A DNA stretch of 64,000 nt. Source: Scenedesmus sp. PABB004 (taxonomy: Eukaryota). The stretch is from the NCBI GenBank assembly GCA_014905635.1, contig JABVCE010000026.1, positions 434,001 to 498,000 on the forward strand. The letters run 5' to 3'. The notes below the pieces were generated by a model. That model was given only the letters and a program-made list of their open reading frames with translations. It did not search any database and was not told where the DNA came from. Of this stretch, positions 31,403-42,366 are shown piece by piece. Numbering within the stretch: position 1 is the first letter of the stretch; every line of letters begins with the position of its first letter. The position numbers and the translations under genes are program-made.

Positions 31403-31692
31403 CTCACCACCTCGGTGGTCACGCTTGTGACGAGCGCGCCCGCAGCGACGCCAGTCCGCATGTCTCCCGCCGCCGCCCCCGCACCAGCACCCGCGACCAG
31501 TGCGCCTCGGCCGGCTATCGGGGCTCTCGCCGCCGCCGCGCCAACAGCAACAGCAGCGGCGGCTCGCACCCAGTTCGCCGCGCTCCGTGCGCCTGCAGCC
31601 TGGCGCTTCCATGATGCCTGTGCGCGACATGCCAGCATCTGCGGCACTCGGGCGCCCCGGCTGAGGGCGGTCCTGTGTGTGTGTGCTTGGCC

Positions 31693-34065
31693 ATGGCGGT
31701 GCCGCCGCCGCATGGCCTCGACCTGGGGGGCCTGCTGCCGCTGCAGGGCGGCTCGGATGCCGAGTACATCACCGCCGCGGCGCTGCTGCACGCTCTGCGC
31801 CGGGGGCAGCAGCAGCAGCAGCAGCAGCCGCTGTCGCCGAGCCTGTCGCCGAGCCTGTCGGCCGCCGCGGCGCCCAGCGACCTGTCCCAGCTGGCGGCGC
31901 TGATCGTCCAGGCCGCGACGCGGGGCCCCGCCGGCGCCGACGCCGCGGCGGCGCGCAGCTACGCGGCGCGGCAGCTCGAGCTGCAGCGGGCGCACGCGGC
32001 CGCCGAGGCGCCGCACGCGCTGGCAGTGCAGCAGCAGCTGCGCCTCCTGCAGGTGGCGCCGCAGCCTGCGCACAGCGCCGCGGCGCTGCCGGCGTACGTG
32101 GCGCCGCCGAAGCTGGAGGACGGCCCCGAGCGGCTCGCCGCGGCGCCGGCGCCGGCGGCCGCGGCCAAGGCGACCAAGAAGCGGGGGCGGCCCGCCGCGT
32201 CGGCCAACAAGGTGCACCCAAACCTCATCTACGTGCGGCGCCACAGGGAGCGCCAGAAGCAGATGGTGCGCGCGCCGGCGCGGCGGCGGGCGCGGCGGGC
32301 GCGGCCAGGGGCGGCCGGCGCCGGGCGTGTGCCTGCGCGCCCCCTGCCCCTGCCCCTGCCCACGCCCCCGCGCCGCGCCGCGCTCGCCGCCGGCGCGCGC
32401 AGGAGAGCAACCTTGAGGCCACGGTGGCGGCGCGCAAGCTGCAGGTGGAGCAGCTGCAAGCCGAGCAGCGCAGCCTGTGCGAGAAGTGGGAGGCGCTGGA
32501 GCAGGTCGGCCGCCGCCGCCGACGCGGGGGCAGGCGCCCTCGGCTCGGCGCGGCGCGGCTGTCGCTCACCGGTGCGGCCGCTGACGGGCGCCGCCGCCGC
32601 TGCGCAGGTGCTGCACGTGCAGAGCAACGTCCTCGGCATAATGCAGCAGCTCAGCCTGGCCGGCGGCGACGGCGCCGCCGACGGCGCGCTCGGAGACGGC
32701 TACGGCGACAGCGGCGCCAGCTCGCAGAGCTGCGCGCCGCAGGGCGCGGCCGCGGCGGCCGGCGACGTGCACATGGCCGACGCCGCGCAGCCAGGGCGCG
32801 ACGCCGCGCAGCGGGCGGCGCCGTCGGCCAGCGGCGGCGCGCCGGAGCCGCCGGCCTCACCCGCGCACTCGCGCGCCTCGGCCAGCCCCAGCCCCCTGCC
32901 GGCGGCCGCGGCGGAGGTCGTCGCCGCGGCGCTGCGCGCGCCGACGCCGGCGCGCGACGCGCCGGGCGACCCCGCGGCGCTGCAGCAGCAGGCGCGGCAC
33001 TGGCTGGAGCCGGTGCGGCTTTACACGCTGCGTGCCGCGCTCATGCTGGAGGCCCTGGGAATGCTGCCGGACAACGCCGCCGCGGCACGCGCGCTCGCGG
33101 CGGCGCGGCGCTGCTCCGCCGTCGCGGCCGGCGCCGCGGCGGCGCGCTCGCCGCAGGCGACCGCCGCGGCGGTCGAGGCGGCCATCGCCGCCGCGGCGGC
33201 CGAGGCGCGCCCCGCCGCCGCGGCGGCGGCGGCCGCGGGCGTGGCCGCCGCAGTGCGCTCGGCCTGGGACGGCAGCGCCGCCGGCCCGGGTGAGGGCGGG
33301 CGGGGCGAGGAGGTGGTGGACGGCGTGCCGCTCGTGCGCTACCCCTACACGATTGGCATGTACGTCATAACGCCCGAGGCGGTCAAGAATGTGTGCTGGC
33401 CGCTCAACATGGAGACGTGGGCGGTCGACGCCGGCAACGACCAGGCGCACGTCGAGCGCGCCGGCCGCGCGATGTGGGCGGTGCTGCGCCCCGAGCGCTG
33501 GCGGCTGCTGCATGCGACGTGGAGCACGATGGCCGTGCAGCTGCAGCAGGTACAGCAGGACTTCAGGCGCCTGCACGACCTGCTGCGGGGCATCGGCACG
33601 CGCCGCCGCCCCGCCGCGTCGGGCGACGGCGCGGCGGACGCGGGCGGCGCGGGCGCTGACGTGGCGGACGCGCGGCCGCACGGCGTGTGCCTGGACGGCT
33701 TCGCCACGATGGAGGACTCCACCGCCTACGAGTACGCGGCCGCCGCGGTGCAGGTGCGGCGGACCGCCTCGGCCGCCACGCGCCACGCAGACGCCGCCGC
33801 GCGTCGGCGTTGGCGCGCGCGCTCACTGCGCGCCGTGCCGCGCGGCCGCCCCGCCGCGCCGCGGCAGGTTGAGAGCGTGCTCGCGCGCGAGGACGCGATC
33901 AGCTTCCAGCTGTGCGGCGCCTTCCTGGAGCTGCTGGACCCGCTGGAGATCGCTGTCGGCTTCGTCTCCAGCTGGCCGTTCCACCCGCAGGCGTTCACGC
34001 TGTTCGACGTGATCTTCAAGCTGGGCGAGCCGCCCGAGAGCGCCTGCCAGCCGGGGCAGGCGTGA
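31693..34065 (+). CDS. bZIP-like transcription factor with an AT-hook-like motif and a C-terminal helical domain, about 4 exons
   Basis: KKRGRP; N-x7-R basic region NLIYVRRHRERQK spliced to heptads LEATVAARKLQVEQLQAEQRSLCEKWEALEQ|VL; polyQ tract. Confidence 0.65.
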   Translation: MAVPPPHGLDLGGLLPLQGGSDAEYITAAALLHALRRGQQQQQQQPLSPSLSPSLSAAAAPSDLSQLAALIVQAATRGPAGADAAAARSYAARQLELQRAHAAAEAPHALAVQQQLRLLQVAPQPAHSAAALPAYVAPPKLEDGPERLAAAPAPAAAAKATKKRGRPAASANKVHPNLIYVRRHRERQKQMVRAPARRRARRARPGAAGAGRVPARPLPLPLPTPPRRAALAAGARRRATLRPRWRRASCRWSSCKPSSAACARSGRRWSRSAAAADAGAGALGSARRGCRSPVRPLTGAAAAAQVLHVQSNVLGIMQQLSLAGGDGAADGALGDGYGDSGASSQSCAPQGAAAAAGDVHMADAAQPGRDAAQRAAPSASGGAPEPPASPAHSRASASPSPLPAAAAEVVAAALRAPTPARDAPGDPAALQQQARHWLEPVRLYTLRAALMLEALGMLPDNAAAARALAAARRCSAVAAGAAAARSPQATAAAVEAAIAAAAAEARPAAAAAAAAGVAAAVRSAWDGSAAGPGEGGRGEEVVDGVPLVRYPYTIGMYVITPEAVKNVCWPLNMETWAVDAGNDQAHVERAGRAMWAVLRPERWRLLHATWSTMAVQLQQVQQDFRRLHDLLRGIGTRRRPAASGDGAADAGGAGADVADARPHGVCLDGFATMEDSTAYEYAAAAVQVRRTASAATRHADAAARRRWRARSLRAVPRGRPAAPRQVESVLAREDAISFQLCGAFLELLDPLEIAVGFVSSWPFHPQAFTLFDVIFKLGEPPESACQPGQA

Positions 34066-34524: not shown

Positions 34525-36063
34525 TCACGCCGCCGCCAGCTGCACCGGCCGCCCCTGCTCGTCGGCCAACGCCCAGGCGGCGCCGCCAGCGCCGTCCGGC
34601 AGGAAGCCCGGCGGCACCTGCGGCGGGCGGCGCGGCGGAGTGGACGGCGGCTGCGCGACGCAGAGGCCGCGCGGCCCCGGGCAGCCGGCGGCCTCACCAG
34701 CAGCACGAGCGCTGCCTCGCCGGCCTTGGGGCTGGCGGCGCGCGCGCGGAACGCGCGCACGTCGGGGCTGAGGTGCAGCGTCCCGCCCGGCGGCAGCACC
34801 GTGCCTGTGCGCGGGCGGACGGGCGGGCGGGCGGCGTGCGGGCGCGGTGCGGCGCGCCGCACTGCTGCCAGCCGGCACCTGCTGCCATTGGCAGCGCGCC
34901 GCTGGCCTGGCGCACCCGGCGGCAGCGTCCAGGACGGCCCGCCCAGCCGGCGCAGCGACCAGCGGCTCATGTCCAGGGCCCGCCCCGGCGGGCCGCAGTG
35001 CACCAGAGCCATGAACGCCGCGCCTGGCGGGCTGGCCGCCAGCTCCGCCGGCCCGAGCGCGAGCGCCGCCGCGGCGGCGTCCGCGGGGCCCGGCAGCAGC
35101 GGGCGCGCGCCGCCGGGCGCGTAGGTCTGCGCGCGGCGGCGGTGCGCGCGCGCCCGGCACGGGCGGCCTCGGCGGCGAGCTCGGGTCGCGAGCCTGCTGC
35201 GCGGCTGCAGGGGGGTCGCGGCCGCGGCGGCCACACGCACCTGCAGCAGCTGCTTGGTCCGGATGGGGATGAACTCCGTCACCAGCTGCGCGTAGCCGCG
35301 GCTGCCGTCGCCGCGGCCCCACAGCGCGTTGTCCGCGGCCGCCGCGGCCTCGATGCGTGCGCGCGTCGCGTCGATGATCTGCGCCGGCGCGACGGCGGCG
35401 GCGGTGGCGGCGGCGGCGGTGCGTCTGCTGTGGCCCATGGGTCCGGTCGAGCCCGCGCACGGGCCCCGCCGCGCGCGCCCGCGCGGGCGCCGCGCCTCGC
35501 GCAGGCGGCCGCCGGCGAGGTAGTGGTCGGCAAGGGTGCGCAGGCGGGCCATGACCATCGCGCGCGTGGCGGGCACGTCCAGCAGCGCGTCAGTGAGGTG
35601 GTTGTACGTCCCCGCCGCGCCGATCACGCTGCGCGTGCTGTAGTCGACGCGGTCCGGGTCGTCCCAGCCGCGCGGCTGCGGGAACACGAGCTGCGCGGCG
35701 CGCGGCGGCAGGCACGCGCGGCGGGCGCGTCGCGCCCTGGCCGGCAGCGTCGAGGGGTGGCGCGCGCGTGCTGGGGCCGCGACGGCGCTCACCGGCTGGC
35801 TGCCCTCGGCCGGCAGCGGCGCGGGCGCCGCCTGCTGCGCGAGGCGGCGCCGCCCGGTGCTGCCCGGCGCCGCGGCGCCCTGGTAGGGATTGCCGCCGAC
35901 CGCAGTGATGGTGCCCCAGGGCGTCTGGACGTTGCCAATGTCCTGCGCGGCGGGCGGGCGGGCGCGCCGTGTGTGACGCGGTGCGGCCCGCAGTGTAGGC
36001 CGCGGTGTGGGCCGCGCGCACGCGCCGCGCCTGGGGGTGCTCGCTGTCGCAGTAGAGGGGGCT

Positions 36064-36106
<43 letters not shown>

Positions 36107-39100
36107 GTGAGCCCGCGCTTTCTGCTGCACGACAGGCTGCGCAGGGCGCGGCGCGTTGAGCGCTAGCAGCACCTGCTCCACTGCTCGCACGCAAGGATGC
36201 AGTACAGGTTCCCCGGCGCGCCGCCGAGCGCGTTGTCCTGGCCCATGGACGCCTCGACGTCCCACGCGATGCTGCGCCGCGGGGGCGCGCGGGGCCGGTG
36301 CGGGCCGGTGCGGGCCGCGCGGCGGCGGCAGCTGGGCGCGCGCGGCGCGCGCCGCCGTGCGGCACGTTCAGCGCGGCCGCTCACCGAGCCCACTGCTGCG
36401 TGCCGGGGTTGAAGTACATGTAGAAGTTCTTGGTGCACCTGTAGGAAGGCAGAGGCAGGGGCGGGGCGCGTCGGCGCCGCGCCCGCGGCCGCGGCGAGCG
36501 AGCTGCGCCGGTGCACGCGCGCGCGCGCGCGCGCGCGCCCGTCGGCTGCCCGCGCGCCCCGCGGCGCCGCGCCTGTCCATGTTGTTCAGCAGCACCTGCA
36601 CCGCCGCCTCGTTGACCACGGCCGGCAGGTCCAGCGCGTCAAAGAGGAGCGACGAGCTGCGCGTGCCCACCCGGCGGCGCGGCGCAGGCGGCGGCGGTGG
36701 GGCGCGGCGCGCGGCGGCCGCGGCGGCGGCATCCGAGGCCGCCATCGGCCGAGCCGGCGGCTGGATGCGCGGCGCGCGGCGCTGCCCGCGCACCGCGTGC
36801 CGGGGCCGCCGCCGGCGAGGCCGCGCGTGAGGTTGGCCAGCAGCTGCCAGTCGGACGCGTCGCCGCGCCGGTTGCGCTTGCCCCAATAGTTGGGCATCTC
36901 GTCCAGGGGCAGGTCCCAGCGCAGGTTGGACAGCTGGCGGCGGGCAGGGGTGGGGAGTCGTGCGTGCAGCGGCGAGCCCGGCGAGCCCGGCGGCGGAAAG
37001 CCACGCGTGCGAGCCGCCCGCCGGCGCGTCCCCAGGCATGACCCTGCCGCGCGCGCGCCGCACCTCGCCGCTCAGGGACTTGAAGAGCGGCCCAGACCCC
37101 GGCAGGCTGAAGCGCTGCAGCAGGCCGGCGTCGACCTGCGCGCCCGCGCCGGCGCGGCGGCGCCGCGCGCGCCGGCCTCGGCCGCGGTGTGCGACATCTC
37201 GCTCCTGCGCCCCTAGGGCAGGCCTGCAGTGCACCGCGCCCCGCTGCAGCTGGCCCCGCGCCTGCTCGACCATGCCAAACAGGCCGTGGAAGGCGCCGTT
37301 GAGGTAGACGGCGACGTGGAAGCTCAGCGGCGCGAGCACGCCCTGCTCCGCCATCACCTGCGCCGCGACGGCGGCGGCGGCGCCGGCGCCGTCGGCGGCG
37401 GCATGAGGAGGACAGCGGCGGCAGGGCGCGCCGCTGCCGCTGCCGCTGCCGCTGCCACGCGGCGCTGGCCGTGGGTGCGCCGTGCACCGCACTGCACACT
37501 CAGCGCCCAGCGTGCACAGCACACTCAGCGCGCAGCGCGCACGGCGCGCCCAGCGCGCCTGGTATGCGACCACCTCCTTCATCATGCTGTTCTCCCCCAG
37601 CTCCGCATAGTAGCTGTTCAGCTTCAGCTCCCCCACCTTGGGCACGCCGGGCAGCAGCCTGCGCATGGGCGGCGGCGAAAGCGTGCGGCGGTGTGCGCGC
37701 GTGAGAGTGCGTCAGCGCGCGCGTGCGTTGCGCCTGGCGCCCAAACGCGTGCGCGGCGTCGTGCCTGAAGCCGCCCGGCACTTTGAAGCTCATTTTCGGC
37801 TTTATCCAACTCAGCGACGTCACGCCGCGCCGCGACGCCTCTGCGCGTGCGCGGCGCGGCGCGGCGCGGCGCGGCGCGGCGCGCGGATCGCGCGCGGGGC
37901 GGGTCATATGGCTGCCCGCGCCTTTCGCCCGCCGCGCCGCCGCCGCTCCATCCCACCGACGCCGTCGTAGAAGGTGCCGTTGAAGGAGAGGCAAGCAGGC
38001 GCGCCGCCCTTGGTCTGCGCGGCGACGGGGTCCTCCGAAAACCTGCGCGCGCGGGTGCGGCGCCGCCGGCGCGGCCGCGGCTCTCGCGCGCGCAGCGGCG
38101 CGCGGGTCTGCGCACGCCGCGGGGCCCCACGCGCGCACCAGTACAGCACTGGGATGGGGCTGGCCGCCTCGGCCGGCAGCGGCACGACGGCGCCCGTGTA
38201 GCCGTCACCGAGCGGCTCGCGGCTCTTGGCGCCGTCGGCGTCGGCTGCCTGCGCGGGCGCGGCGGGGCCGGCCGCTGGCGCGCGCGCTGGCCGCTGGCGC
38301 GCACGCTGGCCGCCGGCGCGCACGCTGCCCGCCGGCGCGGCGGCGCGACGCGCTCACCTCCACGGACCAGCGCACCATGTCGCCTGCCTTGAAGGCCGAG
38401 GCGGGGATGGAACCCACCAACGTGACGCGGCCCGAGGCGTCTGGCGCGTGTGCACGCGCCAGCGCCGGCGCGTGAGCGGCGGCGCCGCGGCGCCGCCGGC
38501 GGCCGCCTGCCGCCCCGCCCCCAGGCCCGCGCGCCGCGGCGGCCCGACCCGCGCGGCCCCGGGGCAGGCGGCGCGCGCGCGCGGCGCGCGCGCGCACCCG
38601 GCGGCCCCTCGGGCGCCATGTCCAGCCGCGCCTCAGGGCCAAAGTTGACTCGGTACACCAGCGCCGCGCCGCTGACCGCCGCGCGGTTGGGGCCGACCTC
38701 GGCCGCGACGCCGATCGGCCGCCCCGGCGCGGCGGGGCCGTCGGGGCAGCGCTCGAGGCTGCGGCAGCGGCGGCGGCGGCGCGCGGCTGTGACCGGCCGC
38801 ACGCGGCTGGGCGCGCGCGCGCGCAGGGAGCCCGCCGCCTGTCGAGCCTGTGAGCGCCAGTGCACTGCTCACTGGCGCGCACAGGCACCTGTGGACGAAC
38901 GGACCGGCCCCCGGCAGAGGGCCCGCGTTGGGCAGCCAGGGCGTGGGGGAGGCCAGGAACGTGTAGTTTGGCGCGCCGGCGGCGGCGGGCGGCGGGCCGG
39001 CTGGCAGGCCGAACGCGACGCCGGGGCGCTGCCTGCGCGGGCGCACGCCGGCGGGGCGTGAGGGCAGCAGCCGGCGCGGGCACGCGCGCGCGGCGTGCGC

Positions 39101-39737
39101 GTGCCGCGTCGCTCACTCTGGCAGGCGGCCCGTCGCGGCCGCGAGCTGGCCGCGCGCATCGAACAGCGCGATCCCGCGCCGCGACACGCGCAGCCCGCTG
39201 GCGACGAGCACGTTGCTGCCGGCCGGCACGGGCGGCAGCTCGTCTGCGGCGCGCGCGGCAGGCGGTGGAGGCGGCGGCGGCCGGGCCTGCCGGCGCGCGC
39301 TGGGGACCCCGCGCCGCGCGCGCTGGGCCCCGCGCCGCGCTGCGCGCGCGCACCGCGGGCTTTCGGGCACATGGCCAACAGAAAGCCGCCCGCGGCAGCG
39401 CCGTGCCCGCCGGCAGCGCCCAGCCCGCGCATCCGGGCGCGCCGCTCGTGGCGACGGCGCGGGGCGGGCCGCCGCCGCCGTCGCTTGCGCACCAGCCGGA
39501 CAGGTTAACGGCGGCGTCGGGCGAGGTGTTGTGCAGCTCGAACCACTCGGTCGCGCCGGCGGCGGCGACCCAGCTGCGCTGCTCGTCGGCCGAGGCGTTT
39601 GCGGGCGAGGCGAGCAGCTCGCTGACGACCACCGGCCCCGCCAGCACCGCCGGCTGCGCGCCCGCGGCCGCCGCGCGCGCGGCGGCCGCCAGCAGCAGGG
39701 CGGCGGGCAGCACCACGGCGCGCGCGTGCGGGCGCAT
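34525..39737 (-). CDS. Secreted lamin-tail-domain / CotH-family atypical kinase / lamin-tail-domain protein, many exons
   Basis: Signal peptide; LTD VVVSELLA..EWFELHN..VNLSGW; CotH motifs RRGVTS, KMSFK, LKLN, KEVVAY, VYLNG.FHGLF.MVEQ|VD, NNMD|RCTKNFYMY, IAWDVEASMG; C-terminal LDMSRWSL..WTLPP|GTVLPPGG. Confidence 0.82.
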
Positions 39738-40122: not shown

Positions 40123-42366
40123 ATGGCGACGCGGCGCGTGGCGCTGCTGGAATGCGAGGACGCCCCGAAGTGGGCGGGCTACACTGAGAGCGTGAGCTGC
40201 GGCCGGCGCGGCGGGGGCGCTGCTGCTCGCGCGCCTCACGCCCCACGCGCCGCCGTGCAGTTATGGCGCGCTGCCGTGGAGGAGCCCGGTGACGAGTGGC
40301 GCGTCTGGCGGGTGCGTGCTGCTAGCGGCGGCAGCGGCAGCGGCGGCAGCGGCGGCGGAGCAGCAGCGGCGTCGCGTTTGCTCGGGCCGGCGCGTCGCCA
40401 GGGCGCGCCGCGCAGCTGCGCCGCACGCCCCTCCCTCAAGCTCCCGCGCTCTCGCTCTCCCACCGCCGCCGGGCCGCCGCCGCGCAGGCATGCGCCGGCG
40501 AGCTGCCGACGGCGGACGAGGCGGCCGCGTGCGACGCTGTCATCGTCGGCGGCAGCCACTACTCCGCCTATGAGGACCACGTCTGGATCCAGCGCCTGCT
40601 GGAGCTGCTGCCCGCGTACGCAGCAAGCGGCGCCCGCATCTACGGCTGCTGCTTCGGCGCGCAGGCACGGGTCCGGGGCGCGCGCGCCGCACCGCGTGGC
40701 GGCCGCGTCGGCGCAGCGCGCGGCCCTGCAGCCGCGGCGGCGGCCGGCCCGCGACGCCGCGCGCCCGGCCTGTGCGCAGATCCTGGCGCGCGCGCTGGGT
40801 GGCGAGGTGGGGCCCAACCCGGACGGCGCGTTTGTGCTGACGCTCGAGTCGGTGCAGCCGACGCCGGAGCTGGCGCGGTTTGAGGGGCTGCACGCCGCGC
40901 TGCAGGCGGACCTGGCGAGCGGCGACGGCGCCGCGGCCGCCGCCGCGCCGCTGCCGGCAGACGCCGCGGGCGCCGCGCTGGCGGCGCTGAGCCTCTCGCC
41001 GCCGCCCGGCGGCGACGAGGCGCGCGCGGCAGCGGCCGAGCAGCAGGCGGGGGCCGCGGCAGCGCCCGGCGGGCTGCGGCTGATCGAGTCTCACGGCGAC
41101 CAGGTGCGGCGGCACGGTGCGCGCGGCTGGGCGGCCGCGCCCGCGGCGGCGCACCACGCGGCCCGCCCGCTCGCCTGTGCGCCTCGCCAGGTGCTGGCGC
41201 TGCCGCCCGGCGCGGTGCGGCTCGCCACGAGCCCGACCGCGGCCAACGAGCTCTGGGCGTGGGGCCCCAACGTGCTGGCGAGCCAGTTTCATGTTGAGTT
41301 TGATGAGCCGCTGGTCCTCCAGAAGATCTGGGCCACGCTGCGCGACGCGGGCCGGCTCTCGCCGGAGCAGGCCGAGGCGAGCCGGCGGTCGCTGGCGGGC
41401 GGCGGCGCGCAGAGCGCGCGCGCGCTGCGTGTCATCAAGCACTTCCTGCGGCACGGCGCCGGCGACGCGGCGCGGCCGCCCGGCAGCAGCGCCGGCGGCG
41501 GCGGGGGCAGGGGCGACGGCGGCGCCGGCGGCGCGCCCGGCGGCGACGGCGGCGCACTCGGCGGCGGGAGCGCGCCTGCCGACGGTGCGCCACCACAGCA
41601 GCAGCAGCAGCAGCAGCAGCAGCCACCAGGCCCAGGCGCCGCACCGCCGCCGGGAGCGGCGGCTGCCGGGGAGCCCCTGCAGCCAGGGCTGCCGCCCCTG
41701 CGGGTGCCCGCGGACGCCGCCGCAGCCGCCGCCACGCGCAGCAGCAGCTGGCCGTCGGGGCTGGCCGGCGCCGACGCGGCGCCGCCGCACGGCTCCGCGG
41801 CGCCGAGCGGCGCGAGCAGCCCCACCGCCGCGTCGGAGGCGAGCTGGGCGGGCACCGCCAGCACGGCGAGCACGGTGCCGTTCTCTGTCATCGCCCACCA
41901 GCGCCGCGCCGCGGCGCGCGAGGCGGAGCTGGGCGAGGCCGCGGGCCGCATGGTCGGCGACGCGGACGCCGCGCTGCAGCTGCGCCTGCGCTTGTCCGGG
42001 CTCGACCTTGACACGCTCACGCAGCTCAACGCCGCGGCGGCGGAGGCGTACGGCGGCGCGGCCGAGCTCGCCGCGGCGCTGGGGCAGTTTGTGTCGGACC
42101 TCGGCGCGCGCCAGGCGGCGGTGCGCGAGGCGCTGTGCGCGCTGCCCGCGCTCGACCGCCAGCTGCGCGCGCTCGAGGGCACCGTGTCGGGCCTCGACCG
42201 GCGCAGCCGCGAGCTCGAGGCGCGGCTCGGCCTCGGCCGGGGCCGCGGCGCGTACGACTACCTGGCTGCCGCGGCGGGCAGCCTCAGCCGCGCCGGCAGC
42301 AGCGTGACGGCGGCCGCGGGCGGCGGCGCCGGCTGCCTCGGCGGCGGCGCGCTGCCGCGGCAGTGA
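40123..42366 (+). CDS. Class I glutamine amidotransferase-like (gamma-glutamyl peptidase/GMP-synthase type) protein with a C-terminal BLOC1S2-like coiled coil, about 5 exons
   Basis: IVGGSHYSAY, WIQRL, IYGCCFGAQ|ILARALGG, ESHGDQ|V..LPPGA, QFHVEF (Cys-His-Glu triad); tail LDTLTQLN..Y..LEGTVSGLDRRSRELEARL. Confidence 0.85.
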   Translation: MATRRVALLECEDAPKWAGYTESVSCGRRGGGAAARAPHAPRAAVQLWRAAVEEPGDEWRVWRVRAASGGSGSGGSGGGAAAASRLLGPARRQGAPRSCAARPSLKLPRSRSPTAAGPPPRRHAPASCRRRTRRPRATLSSSAAATTPPMRTTSGSSACWSCCPRTQQAAPASTAAASARRHGSGARAPHRVAAASAQRAALQPRRRPARDAARPACAQILARALGGEVGPNPDGAFVLTLESVQPTPELARFEGLHAALQADLASGDGAAAAAAPLPADAAGAALAALSLSPPPGGDEARAAAAEQQAGAAAAPGGLRLIESHGDQVRRHGARGWAAAPAAAHHAARPLACAPRQVLALPPGAVRLATSPTAANELWAWGPNVLASQFHVEFDEPLVLQKIWATLRDAGRLSPEQAEASRRSLAGGGAQSARALRVIKHFLRHGAGDAARPPGSSAGGGGGRGDGGAGGAPGGDGGALGGGSAPADGAPPQQQQQQQQQPPGPGAAPPPGAAAAGEPLQPGLPPLRVPADAAAAAATRSSSWPSGLAGADAAPPHGSAAPSGASSPTAASEASWAGTASTASTVPFSVIAHQRRAAAREAELGEAAGRMVGDADAALQLRLRLSGLDLDTLTQLNAAAAEAYGGAAELAAALGQFVSDLGARQAAVREALCALPALDRQLRALEGTVSGLDRRSRELEARLGLGRGRGAYDYLAAAAGSLSRAGSSVTAAAGGGAGCLGGGALPRQ

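Follow-up and report, generated by a model that had tools for sequence, protein, structure and literature searches.

The locus considered here raises the question of whether an intron-rich gene of the green alga Scenedesmus sp. PABB004 encodes a working secreted kinase of the CotH family, and from where such a gene was obtained. The gene lies on the minus strand of a 64,000-nucleotide window (contig JABVCE010000026.1, positions 434,001 to 498,000; G000:C20:434001-498000), whose GC content is 75-84% throughout. Its features are collected in Table 1. The answer reached below, to which we give a probability of about 0.62, is that it encodes a candidate soluble CotH kinase of the secretory pathway, which would form disulfides in the endoplasmic reticulum (ER), may be nicked in the Golgi, and would phosphorylate secreted or cell-wall proteins with luminal ATP.

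A model of 22 exons was built by hand for this gene. Its start and stop are exactly those of the original prediction, and the many spliceosomal introns foreseen there number 21 (80-201 nt). All 21 end in a CAG acceptor, a triplet found at 2.5% of gene positions; the donors are GT in 15 introns and GC in 6, and every GC donor is preceded by an exonic AG. Exon boundaries were chosen by eye, and the independent check is therefore given by the open frame and by its alignment with orthologues. Exons 2-22 encode 784 residues without an internal stop, with a third-position GC content (GC3) of 0.95, and align end-to-end with orthologue P0004 (60% identity, 794 columns, 20 gap positions) and with P0006 and P0003 (53% identity). 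The public NCBI model, P0001 (100% identical over the query), omits exons 7, 8 and 13 and keeps introns 9, 10 and 18. As a consequence it has neither the N-lobe motifs R-G and K-P-K nor the catalytic Asp, which leaves the gene open to being misread as inactive. At each junction with one of the six GC donors the public model departs from the hand-built one, by a skipped exon, a retained intron or a shifted donor.

The product is arranged as a predicted signal peptide, a lamin-tail domain (LTD), an immunoglobulin (Ig)-like domain, the CotH kinase and a second LTD. Folds were compared on an AlphaFold model of P0004 (43 rows; mean predicted local distance difference test score, pLDDT, 81; predicted template modelling score 0.81), which has a disordered N-terminus followed by four domains. 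Residues 362-818 of this model match Bacillus cereus CotH (5JD9) with Z 22.4, a root-mean-square deviation (rmsd) of 2.8 over 343 aligned residues and a Foldseek E of 2e-15. The kinase domain also matches 5JD9 by profile (E 5e-17), a profile built from the core of the orthologues gives 601 bits with spliced exons 2-22, and six orthologues score 57-135 bits on PF08757 (cut-off 23.8). Membership of the CotH family, as originally proposed, is thus supported by Pfam scores of orthologues, profile and fold. This gene escaped a six-frame PF08757 search of the genome, which picked up another CotH; an exon-by-exon Pfam scan, in which 3 of 15 pieces matched at E<=0.5 (LTD, a weak CotH and a chance PutA), was uninformative because the exons are too short.

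Both of the expected lamin-tail domains are found by PF00932 in P0001 (38.5 bits over two stretches, above the cut-off). For the N-terminal copy, exon 1 alone gives E 5e-5, below the cut-off, and residues 45-192 of P0004 match the lamin A/C tail 1IFR (Z 10.2, rmsd 3.1, 108 aligned). The C-terminal copy is weak on its own: profile matches to lamin A/C have E about 0.4, and the last exons alone have no Pfam match. Between the first LTD and the kinase lies the Ig-like beta-sandwich, which the original prediction did not contain; residues 238-354 of P0004 match the Ig domain of PPAD (Z 12.8, rmsd 2.4, 100 aligned), and the same region matches the N-domain of the alpha-amylase TVAI (Z 11.9, rmsd 2.5, 105 aligned). 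Secretory targeting is borne out by N-terminal hydropathy (mean Kyte-Doolittle 2.65 over 11 residues), and a hydrophobic stretch is predicted within the first 70 residues in 30 of 34 hand-picked orthologues. No membrane or glycosylphosphatidylinositol (GPI)-type tail is seen: the highest 19-residue hydropathy in exons 2-22 is 1.26, and the protein ends with the LTD.

The ordered CotH motifs, including NxD..N and WD, are present as predicted, and the catalytic residues are intact after splicing. In the profile alignment to 5JD9, D-R-C-T-K-N lies over D-G-F-V-H-N and W-D over W-D. The loop is encoded across intron 13 (catalytic Asp, codon 36577-36575; loop Cys, 36437-36435; Asn, 36428-36426), and the two Asp residues are 23 residues apart, as they are in 5JD9 and in B. 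subtilis CotH (D228/D251). Changing either D228 or D251 inactivates the B. subtilis kinase, as the consulted part of PMC7821199 describes. When 57 algal rows were compared with 140 non-algal (bacterial) rows, the catalytic Asp and Asn were found in 56/57 algal and 140/140 bacterial rows; the Asp of W-D is kept in 55 of the algal rows, the N-lobe Arg in 54 and the first N-lobe Lys in 56.

The relatives of the protein were then considered. When the kinase region was used as query, 8000 candidates were scored and 108 proteins matched. The named algal matches belong to Sphaeropleales, Chlamydomonadales, Bryopsidales, Trebouxiophyceae, a pedinophyte and Chloropicon, and Picocystis was added by cluster look-ups (30 proteins), so that named orthologues cover Chlorophyceae, Ulvophyceae, Trebouxiophyceae, Pedinophyceae, Chloropicon and Picocystis. 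Algal orthologues already carry a CotH-domain label in databases. A marine group (P0205, P0242, P0262) is located on intron-poor contigs, one of which places it next to a plant-type TOM20 and a MORC gene. P0254, a protein of 698 residues with a Pro/Ala-rich N-terminus, forms a long branch inside the algal clade. The named non-algal matches belong to Phycisphaerales, Phycisphaerae and Verrucomicrobiota, and the Verrucomicrobiales protein P0203 is colinear with P0004 from the first LTD through the second. The bacterial kinship first proposed from the LTD and CotH combination is therefore upheld, the nearest relatives being Planctomycetota and Verrucomicrobiota with the order LTD-Ig-CotH-LTD. Of 190 loci found in GTDB genomes, 80 were retained: 45 in Verrucomicrobiota, 33 in Planctomycetota and 1 in Lentisphaerota, with 1 other. 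Of these 80, 79 fall in the Planctomycetes-Verrucomicrobia-Chlamydiae (PVC) group, a share that leans on a query built from the nearest, PVC-like, non-algal proteins. No cyanobacterial or non-green eukaryotic name occurs among the named matches except P0364, labelled Diacronema lutheri (a haptophyte); it is 88% identical to a Picocystis CotH protein and is probably a contaminant, alga-to-alga transfer being the alternative. A giant-virus origin was looked for, and none of 16 pattern matches in viral contigs was confirmed. Searches of the Atlas returned LTD-CotH clusters alone and are taken as leads only.

For the trees, which covered algal and bacterial CotH sequences, 312 kinase cores were reduced to 197 by removal of near-duplicates. 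In the FastTree analysis of these, the 57 algal rows form one clade (support 1.0). In a second tree of 53 hand-chosen rows, rooted on the second CotH subfamily described below and computed under a non-mixture model, the 17 algal rows again form one clade (100/100). Within it, Chlorophyceae (100/99), Trebouxiophyceae (99/97) and the core chlorophytes (98/93) each come together, and prasinophyte-grade algae branch outside them; the pairing of Bryopsis with the pedinophyte departs from the expected order. The node uniting the algae with 15 PVC rows, on which nesting would depend, has support of 90/91. One ancient acquisition followed by vertical descent within Chlorophyta is well supported by these sequence comparisons, and kinship to PVC bacteria is supported. 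As to the domesticated horizontal transfer of the original prediction, the PVC kinship stands in both tree and named matches, while the event is not particular to this alga: since the clade spans Chlorophyta, any transfer must be ancient, and a recent lineage-specific one is ruled out. Nesting within bacteria and a bacteria-to-alga direction are what we infer, the direction from distribution. P0254 could be a streptophyte protein, in which case the acquisition may date to the base of green plants.

New in this work, beside the pan-chlorophyte clade, are a set of algal cysteines and an insert bearing a motif. The four cysteines, of which that in the catalytic loop is the first, occur in 54, 51, 50 and 53 of the 57 algal rows. 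The catalytic-loop Cys is also found in 17/140 bacterial rows, and the bacterial column at codon 36051-36049 is Gly in 118/140. Among 54 scorable algal rows, 47 have all four cysteines, 6 show paired losses and 1 a single loss. The catalytic-loop and S-P-L-Y-C cysteines are lost together in two rows (P0021/P0032), and P0254 has the same pattern, with the bacterial Leu/Gly state at this pair; the C-x3-C pair is lost together in four rows from two lineages (P0038/P0023/P0036 and P0192). Because the cysteines vanish in pairs, this pattern suggests two disulfides and not a four-cysteine metal site, the events being few.

The insert lies in the C-lobe after the S-E-H motif. Its length has a median of 79 residues (17-252) in the algal rows versus 7 (0-16) in the bacterial rows, and the P0004 model has pLDDT <50 at residues 651-688, within it. 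The pattern R-[RKS]-[LIV]-x is found in the inserts of 41/57 algal rows, as compared with a mean of 5.1 and a maximum of 13 in 1000 shuffles; P0254 carries R-S-L-L and R-K-L-Q. The motif present here agrees with the consensus for site-1 protease, R-x-(L/I/V)-Z, as given in the portion of PMC12067269 consulted. It also agrees with the R-K-L-L and R-R-L-L processing motifs of plant pectin methylesterases, at which other subtilases may cut according to the accessible part of 10.1101/2022.07.28.501549. A gene with a site-1 protease domain is present in the genome (PF23090 MBTPS1_4th, best E 3e-20, four exons at G000:C1:2413940-2415220; L195, L196).

Beyond this anatomy the proposed scheme is conditional. 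The whole LTD-Ig-CotH-LTD architecture would have passed once from a PVC bacterium to an ancestor shared by the Chlorophyta, or by green plants as a whole, and then descended vertically with gain of introns. The protein would enter the ER, where two disulfides may form, one of them joining the catalytic loop to the S-P-L-Y-C segment. A Golgi subtilase, site-1 protease or a relative, might then nick the exposed insert at R-R-L, the two chains staying joined via C-lobe helices; this step is the least certain of the scheme and is put forward tentatively, with the odds somewhat against it. With luminal ATP and Mg or Mn, the enzyme would phosphorylate Ser/Thr of secreted or wall proteins, for which the LTD and Ig domains might serve as docking modules. 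It is doubtful, though conceivable by analogy, that this would be the chlorophyte Golgi/wall counterpart in function of Fam20C, drawn from PVC bacteria and converging on Fam20C maturation with a catalytic-loop disulfide and a pro-loop cut by site-1 protease as on-switch.

Several observations weigh against the candidate secretory kinase or parts of its scheme. First, the position of Ser in K-K-S of 5JD9 is Lys here. Secondly, P0001 scores 23.1 bits on PF08757, just below the cut-off, and exon 1 is out of frame relative to orthologues in this assembly. Thirdly, P0017 loses one cysteine alone. The motif count in the inserts was obtained with a pattern picked after viewing the sequences and in rows related by descent, and 16 of the 57 rows, including a picoalgal group with short inserts, are without it; in addition, Ala at P1, as in R-R-L-A here, is tolerated and not preferred by site-1 protease in the part of PMC12067269 available. 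Finally, on origin, a separate clade of the 25 bacterial rows survives the approximately unbiased (AU) test (p=0.39), so that nesting of the algae inside the bacteria is unproven. The rival explanations, which are partly compatible with each other, are considered in turn.

An active phosphotransferase might have a glycan or small molecule of the Golgi or wall, and not a protein, as acceptor. Amylase N-domains and CBM56 appear in the list of folds similar to the Ig-like domain, and the neighbours of bacterial CotH genes include sulfatases, laminin-G and sugar-binding proteins; Fam20B, a relative, is a xylose kinase. On the other hand, the Ig match is to a common fold in which PPAD ranks higher, and sulfatase and sugar-binding neighbours are ordinary in PVC genomes. 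Nor is there a conserved gene order around the bacterial loci: when 31 of 66 neighbouring open reading frames from 14 loci were scanned, no conserved operon and no VTC or DUF4956 partner emerged, and the shared neighbours were laminin-G (2 loci), TctC (3) and sulfatase (3), with no other common order. Moreover, B. subtilis CotH, the sole CotH with substrates considered here, acts on proteins in the account of PMC7821199 available. A glycan or small-molecule acceptor is unlikely. In the planctomycete loci L090, L093 and L117, a TctC-family gene lies directly downstream of CotH, an adjacency that is probably plain synteny among relatives.

It may also be that the family is functional and that a genuine loss of one base in exon 1 has recently damaged or altered this copy, giving a null allele or rescue via the weak donor 39379. 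Orthologues P0004 and P0006 are continuous in this region (W-x-x-P-x-G-x-x-x-x-x-G-x-L-L-x-V-L-C-P), and here the two halves are in different frames; the NCBI model takes GT at 39379 as donor, by which the conserved strand is lost, and the gene stretch is single-copy in the genome. However, the second half of the broken stretch ends at the consensus donor 39353, which is the commonest donor hexamer of the gene, the other 784 codons are stop-free with high GC3, and the terminal branch is short (0.17-0.20). Single-base losses are common in very GC-rich long-read assemblies. Because the remaining gene is intact, an assembly error is likelier than decay of the gene, and a damaged copy seems quite unlikely. 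An intron at 39492 was rejected as an explanation of the break, since orthologues align through it and no listed acceptor restores the frame in a hand check.

As regards origin, the gene might instead be an old eukaryotic or endosymbiont gene widely lost elsewhere, or have passed from algae to PVC bacteria. The AU test is compatible with algae as sister to, and not inside, the bacterial subfamily; a profile search (22 rows, one bacterial) gave 15,546 representatives at E<=0.001, of which the best 150, mostly unnamed, were considered; and there are the long branch of P0254 and the haptophyte label of P0364 to account for. Against this, the bacterial members show much more diversity and occur in multiple copies, the one non-green eukaryotic name among the named matches is that near-copy of a Picocystis protein, and the cysteines and the insert are algal additions onto a shorter bacterial core. 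Such an origin is very unlikely, and the acquisition from PVC bacteria is preferred. Least probable of all is a pseudokinase or structural wall protein with the fold as scaffold and the loop disulfide as an inactivating lock: a cysteine two residues past the catalytic Asp does co-vary with a second one, and Mucor CotH proteins are discussed as structural elements of the spore surface in the part of PMC9973265 consulted, but the catalytic Asp, Asn and W-D Asp and the N-lobe Arg and Lys are kept in nearly all algal rows, and rows with the bacterial Leu/Gly state occur inside the algal clade.

The same genome carries a second CotH gene (G000:C67:15052-18384, L001; PF08757), with a hydrophobic N-terminus in the C67 frame. 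Proteins of this second type (that of C67, P0386, P0390 and P0391), with orthologues in other Sphaeropleales, have no LTD match; they are separated from the present family by a long 100/100 branch and group with other PVC proteins. A single origin of the two algal types is rejected by the tree, and the sequences point to an independent lineage and a second acquisition. P0386, the NCBI model of this second gene, looks like a fusion with a gene upstream, and one intron of the second gene (L001:380-760) contains a tandem repeat of ~40 bp, seen by eye. In the window, the neighbours of the CotH gene are unrelated to it. The divergent upstream gene has a BLOC1 subunit 2 domain (PF10046, E 1.5e-10); its N-terminal part, which has no Pfam match in the unspliced frame, we take to resemble a class I glutamine amidotransferase, possibly in a fusion. 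The convergent downstream gene encodes, by eye, a bZIP-like basic region and coiled coil, with no Pfam match in the unspliced frame.

Table 1. Features of the CotH gene and its neighbours (window positions; cleavage point of the signal peptide inferred).
Feature	Position	Strand	Basis or remark
CotH gene, whole	34525..39737	-	ATG at 39737, TGA 34527-34525; splice sites, open frame, orthologue alignment
Exons 1-8	39737-39354, 39243-39117, 39032-38889, 38758-38598, 38440-38358, 38248-38139, 38042-37957, 37840-37765	-	
Exons 9-16	37658-37559, 37357-37262, 37135-37064, 36933-36794, 36656-36573, 36438-36385, 36271-36173, 36061-36031	-	
Exons 17-22	35942-35793, 35690-35496, 35378-35241, 35126-34916, 34804-34698, 34617-34525	-	
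Predicted signal peptide, ~residues 1-27	39657..39737	-	basic start and hydrophobic stretch
N-terminal LTD, exons 1-2	39130..39638	-	PF00932 and orthologue fold match
One-base frame break, exon 1	39354..39400 (near 39395)	-	conserved strand before donor at 39353 in other frame
Ig-like beta-sandwich, exons 3-6	38174..38905	-	orthologue fold match
CotH kinase domain, exons 6-20	35076..38161	-	PF08757 in orthologues, profile match, fold
N-lobe R-G and K-P-K motifs, exon 8	37794..37829	-	align to R-G and K-K-S of 5JD9
Catalytic loop N-M-D-R-C-T-K-N, split by GC-AG intron 13	36426..36583	-	alignment to orthologues and 5JD9
W-D motif	36259..36264	-	second Asp, codon 36261-36259
Three further algal cysteines (codons 36201-36199, 36189-36187, 36051-36049)	36049..36201	-	row counts, pairwise losses
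Algal C-lobe insert, 81 residues	35604..36036	-	row comparison
R-R-R-L-A motif in insert	35838..35852	-	fits site-1 protease consensus
C-terminal lamin-tail-like domain, exons 20-22	34528..35057	-	second PF00932 stretch in P0001 and orthologues
Divergent upstream neighbour	40123-42366	+	BLOC1 subunit 2 domain
Convergent downstream neighbour	31615-34065	+	bZIP-like by eye

In animals, where Fam20C acts, phosphorylation within the secretory pathway is an established process. No secretory-pathway kinase of Chlamydomonas was found described in a limited literature search, and a search for the algal CotH family, judged from listings and covering few subscription papers, likewise found no description, in agreement with the original prediction as far as that coverage reaches. 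With catalytic residues near-invariant from picoalgae to Chlorophyceae, the family offers a concrete candidate for an algal secretory kinase, and also a eukaryotic handle on the LTD-CotH proteins of PVC bacteria, which are large and uncharacterised. If family membership alone holds, the result is a modest extension of a known family.

The candidate secretory kinase may finally be set beside known systems. Bacillus CotH (PF08757; B. cereus 5JD9/5JDA and B. subtilis) is alike in fold, in the R-G motif, in Asp..Asn and in the second Asp at +23, with an identity of 15-20% only. It is a lone domain of 359 residues, whereas the algal kinase has a signal peptide, an LTD and an Ig domain before it and an LTD after it, with K-P-K in place of K-K-S, four cysteines and the 81-residue insert. 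The CotH proteins of Mucorales share the PF08757 domain and a signal peptide with the algal protein; in the consulted part of PMC9973265, Mucor has 17 CotH genes, fungal CotH is confined to two phyla, and algae go unmentioned. Some Mucorales CotH are described there as carrying GPI anchors and a GRP78-binding motif, unlike the algal protein, which is without a GPI-type or membrane tail; no fungal protein was named among the matches, and the comparison with Mucorales invasins made in the original prediction is therefore weak. Much closer are the PVC proteins P0063/P0064 (Phycisphaerales) and P0203/P0216 (Verrucomicrobiota), with the same domain order, 29-36% identity and the shared motifs R-R-G, W-x-K-P-K, D-R-x-x-K-N, S-P-L-Y-x-D-S and R-x-M-Y-L-R-R-L-R-T. 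These differ in being intronless, in lacking a conserved cysteine set, in an insert of 0-16 residues and, often, in extra C-terminal domains; no function for them was found in the literature searched. Fam20C, the animal Golgi casein kinase, is likewise an atypical kinase of the secretory pathway, of another family and domain set. CotH was discovered through similarity to it (10.1101/2020.02.18.954925, in part), and it is matured by site-1 protease, as described in the available text of PMC11714710. The protease motif of the algal protein lies inside the C-lobe, and the parallel with Fam20C maturation would be one of analogy.

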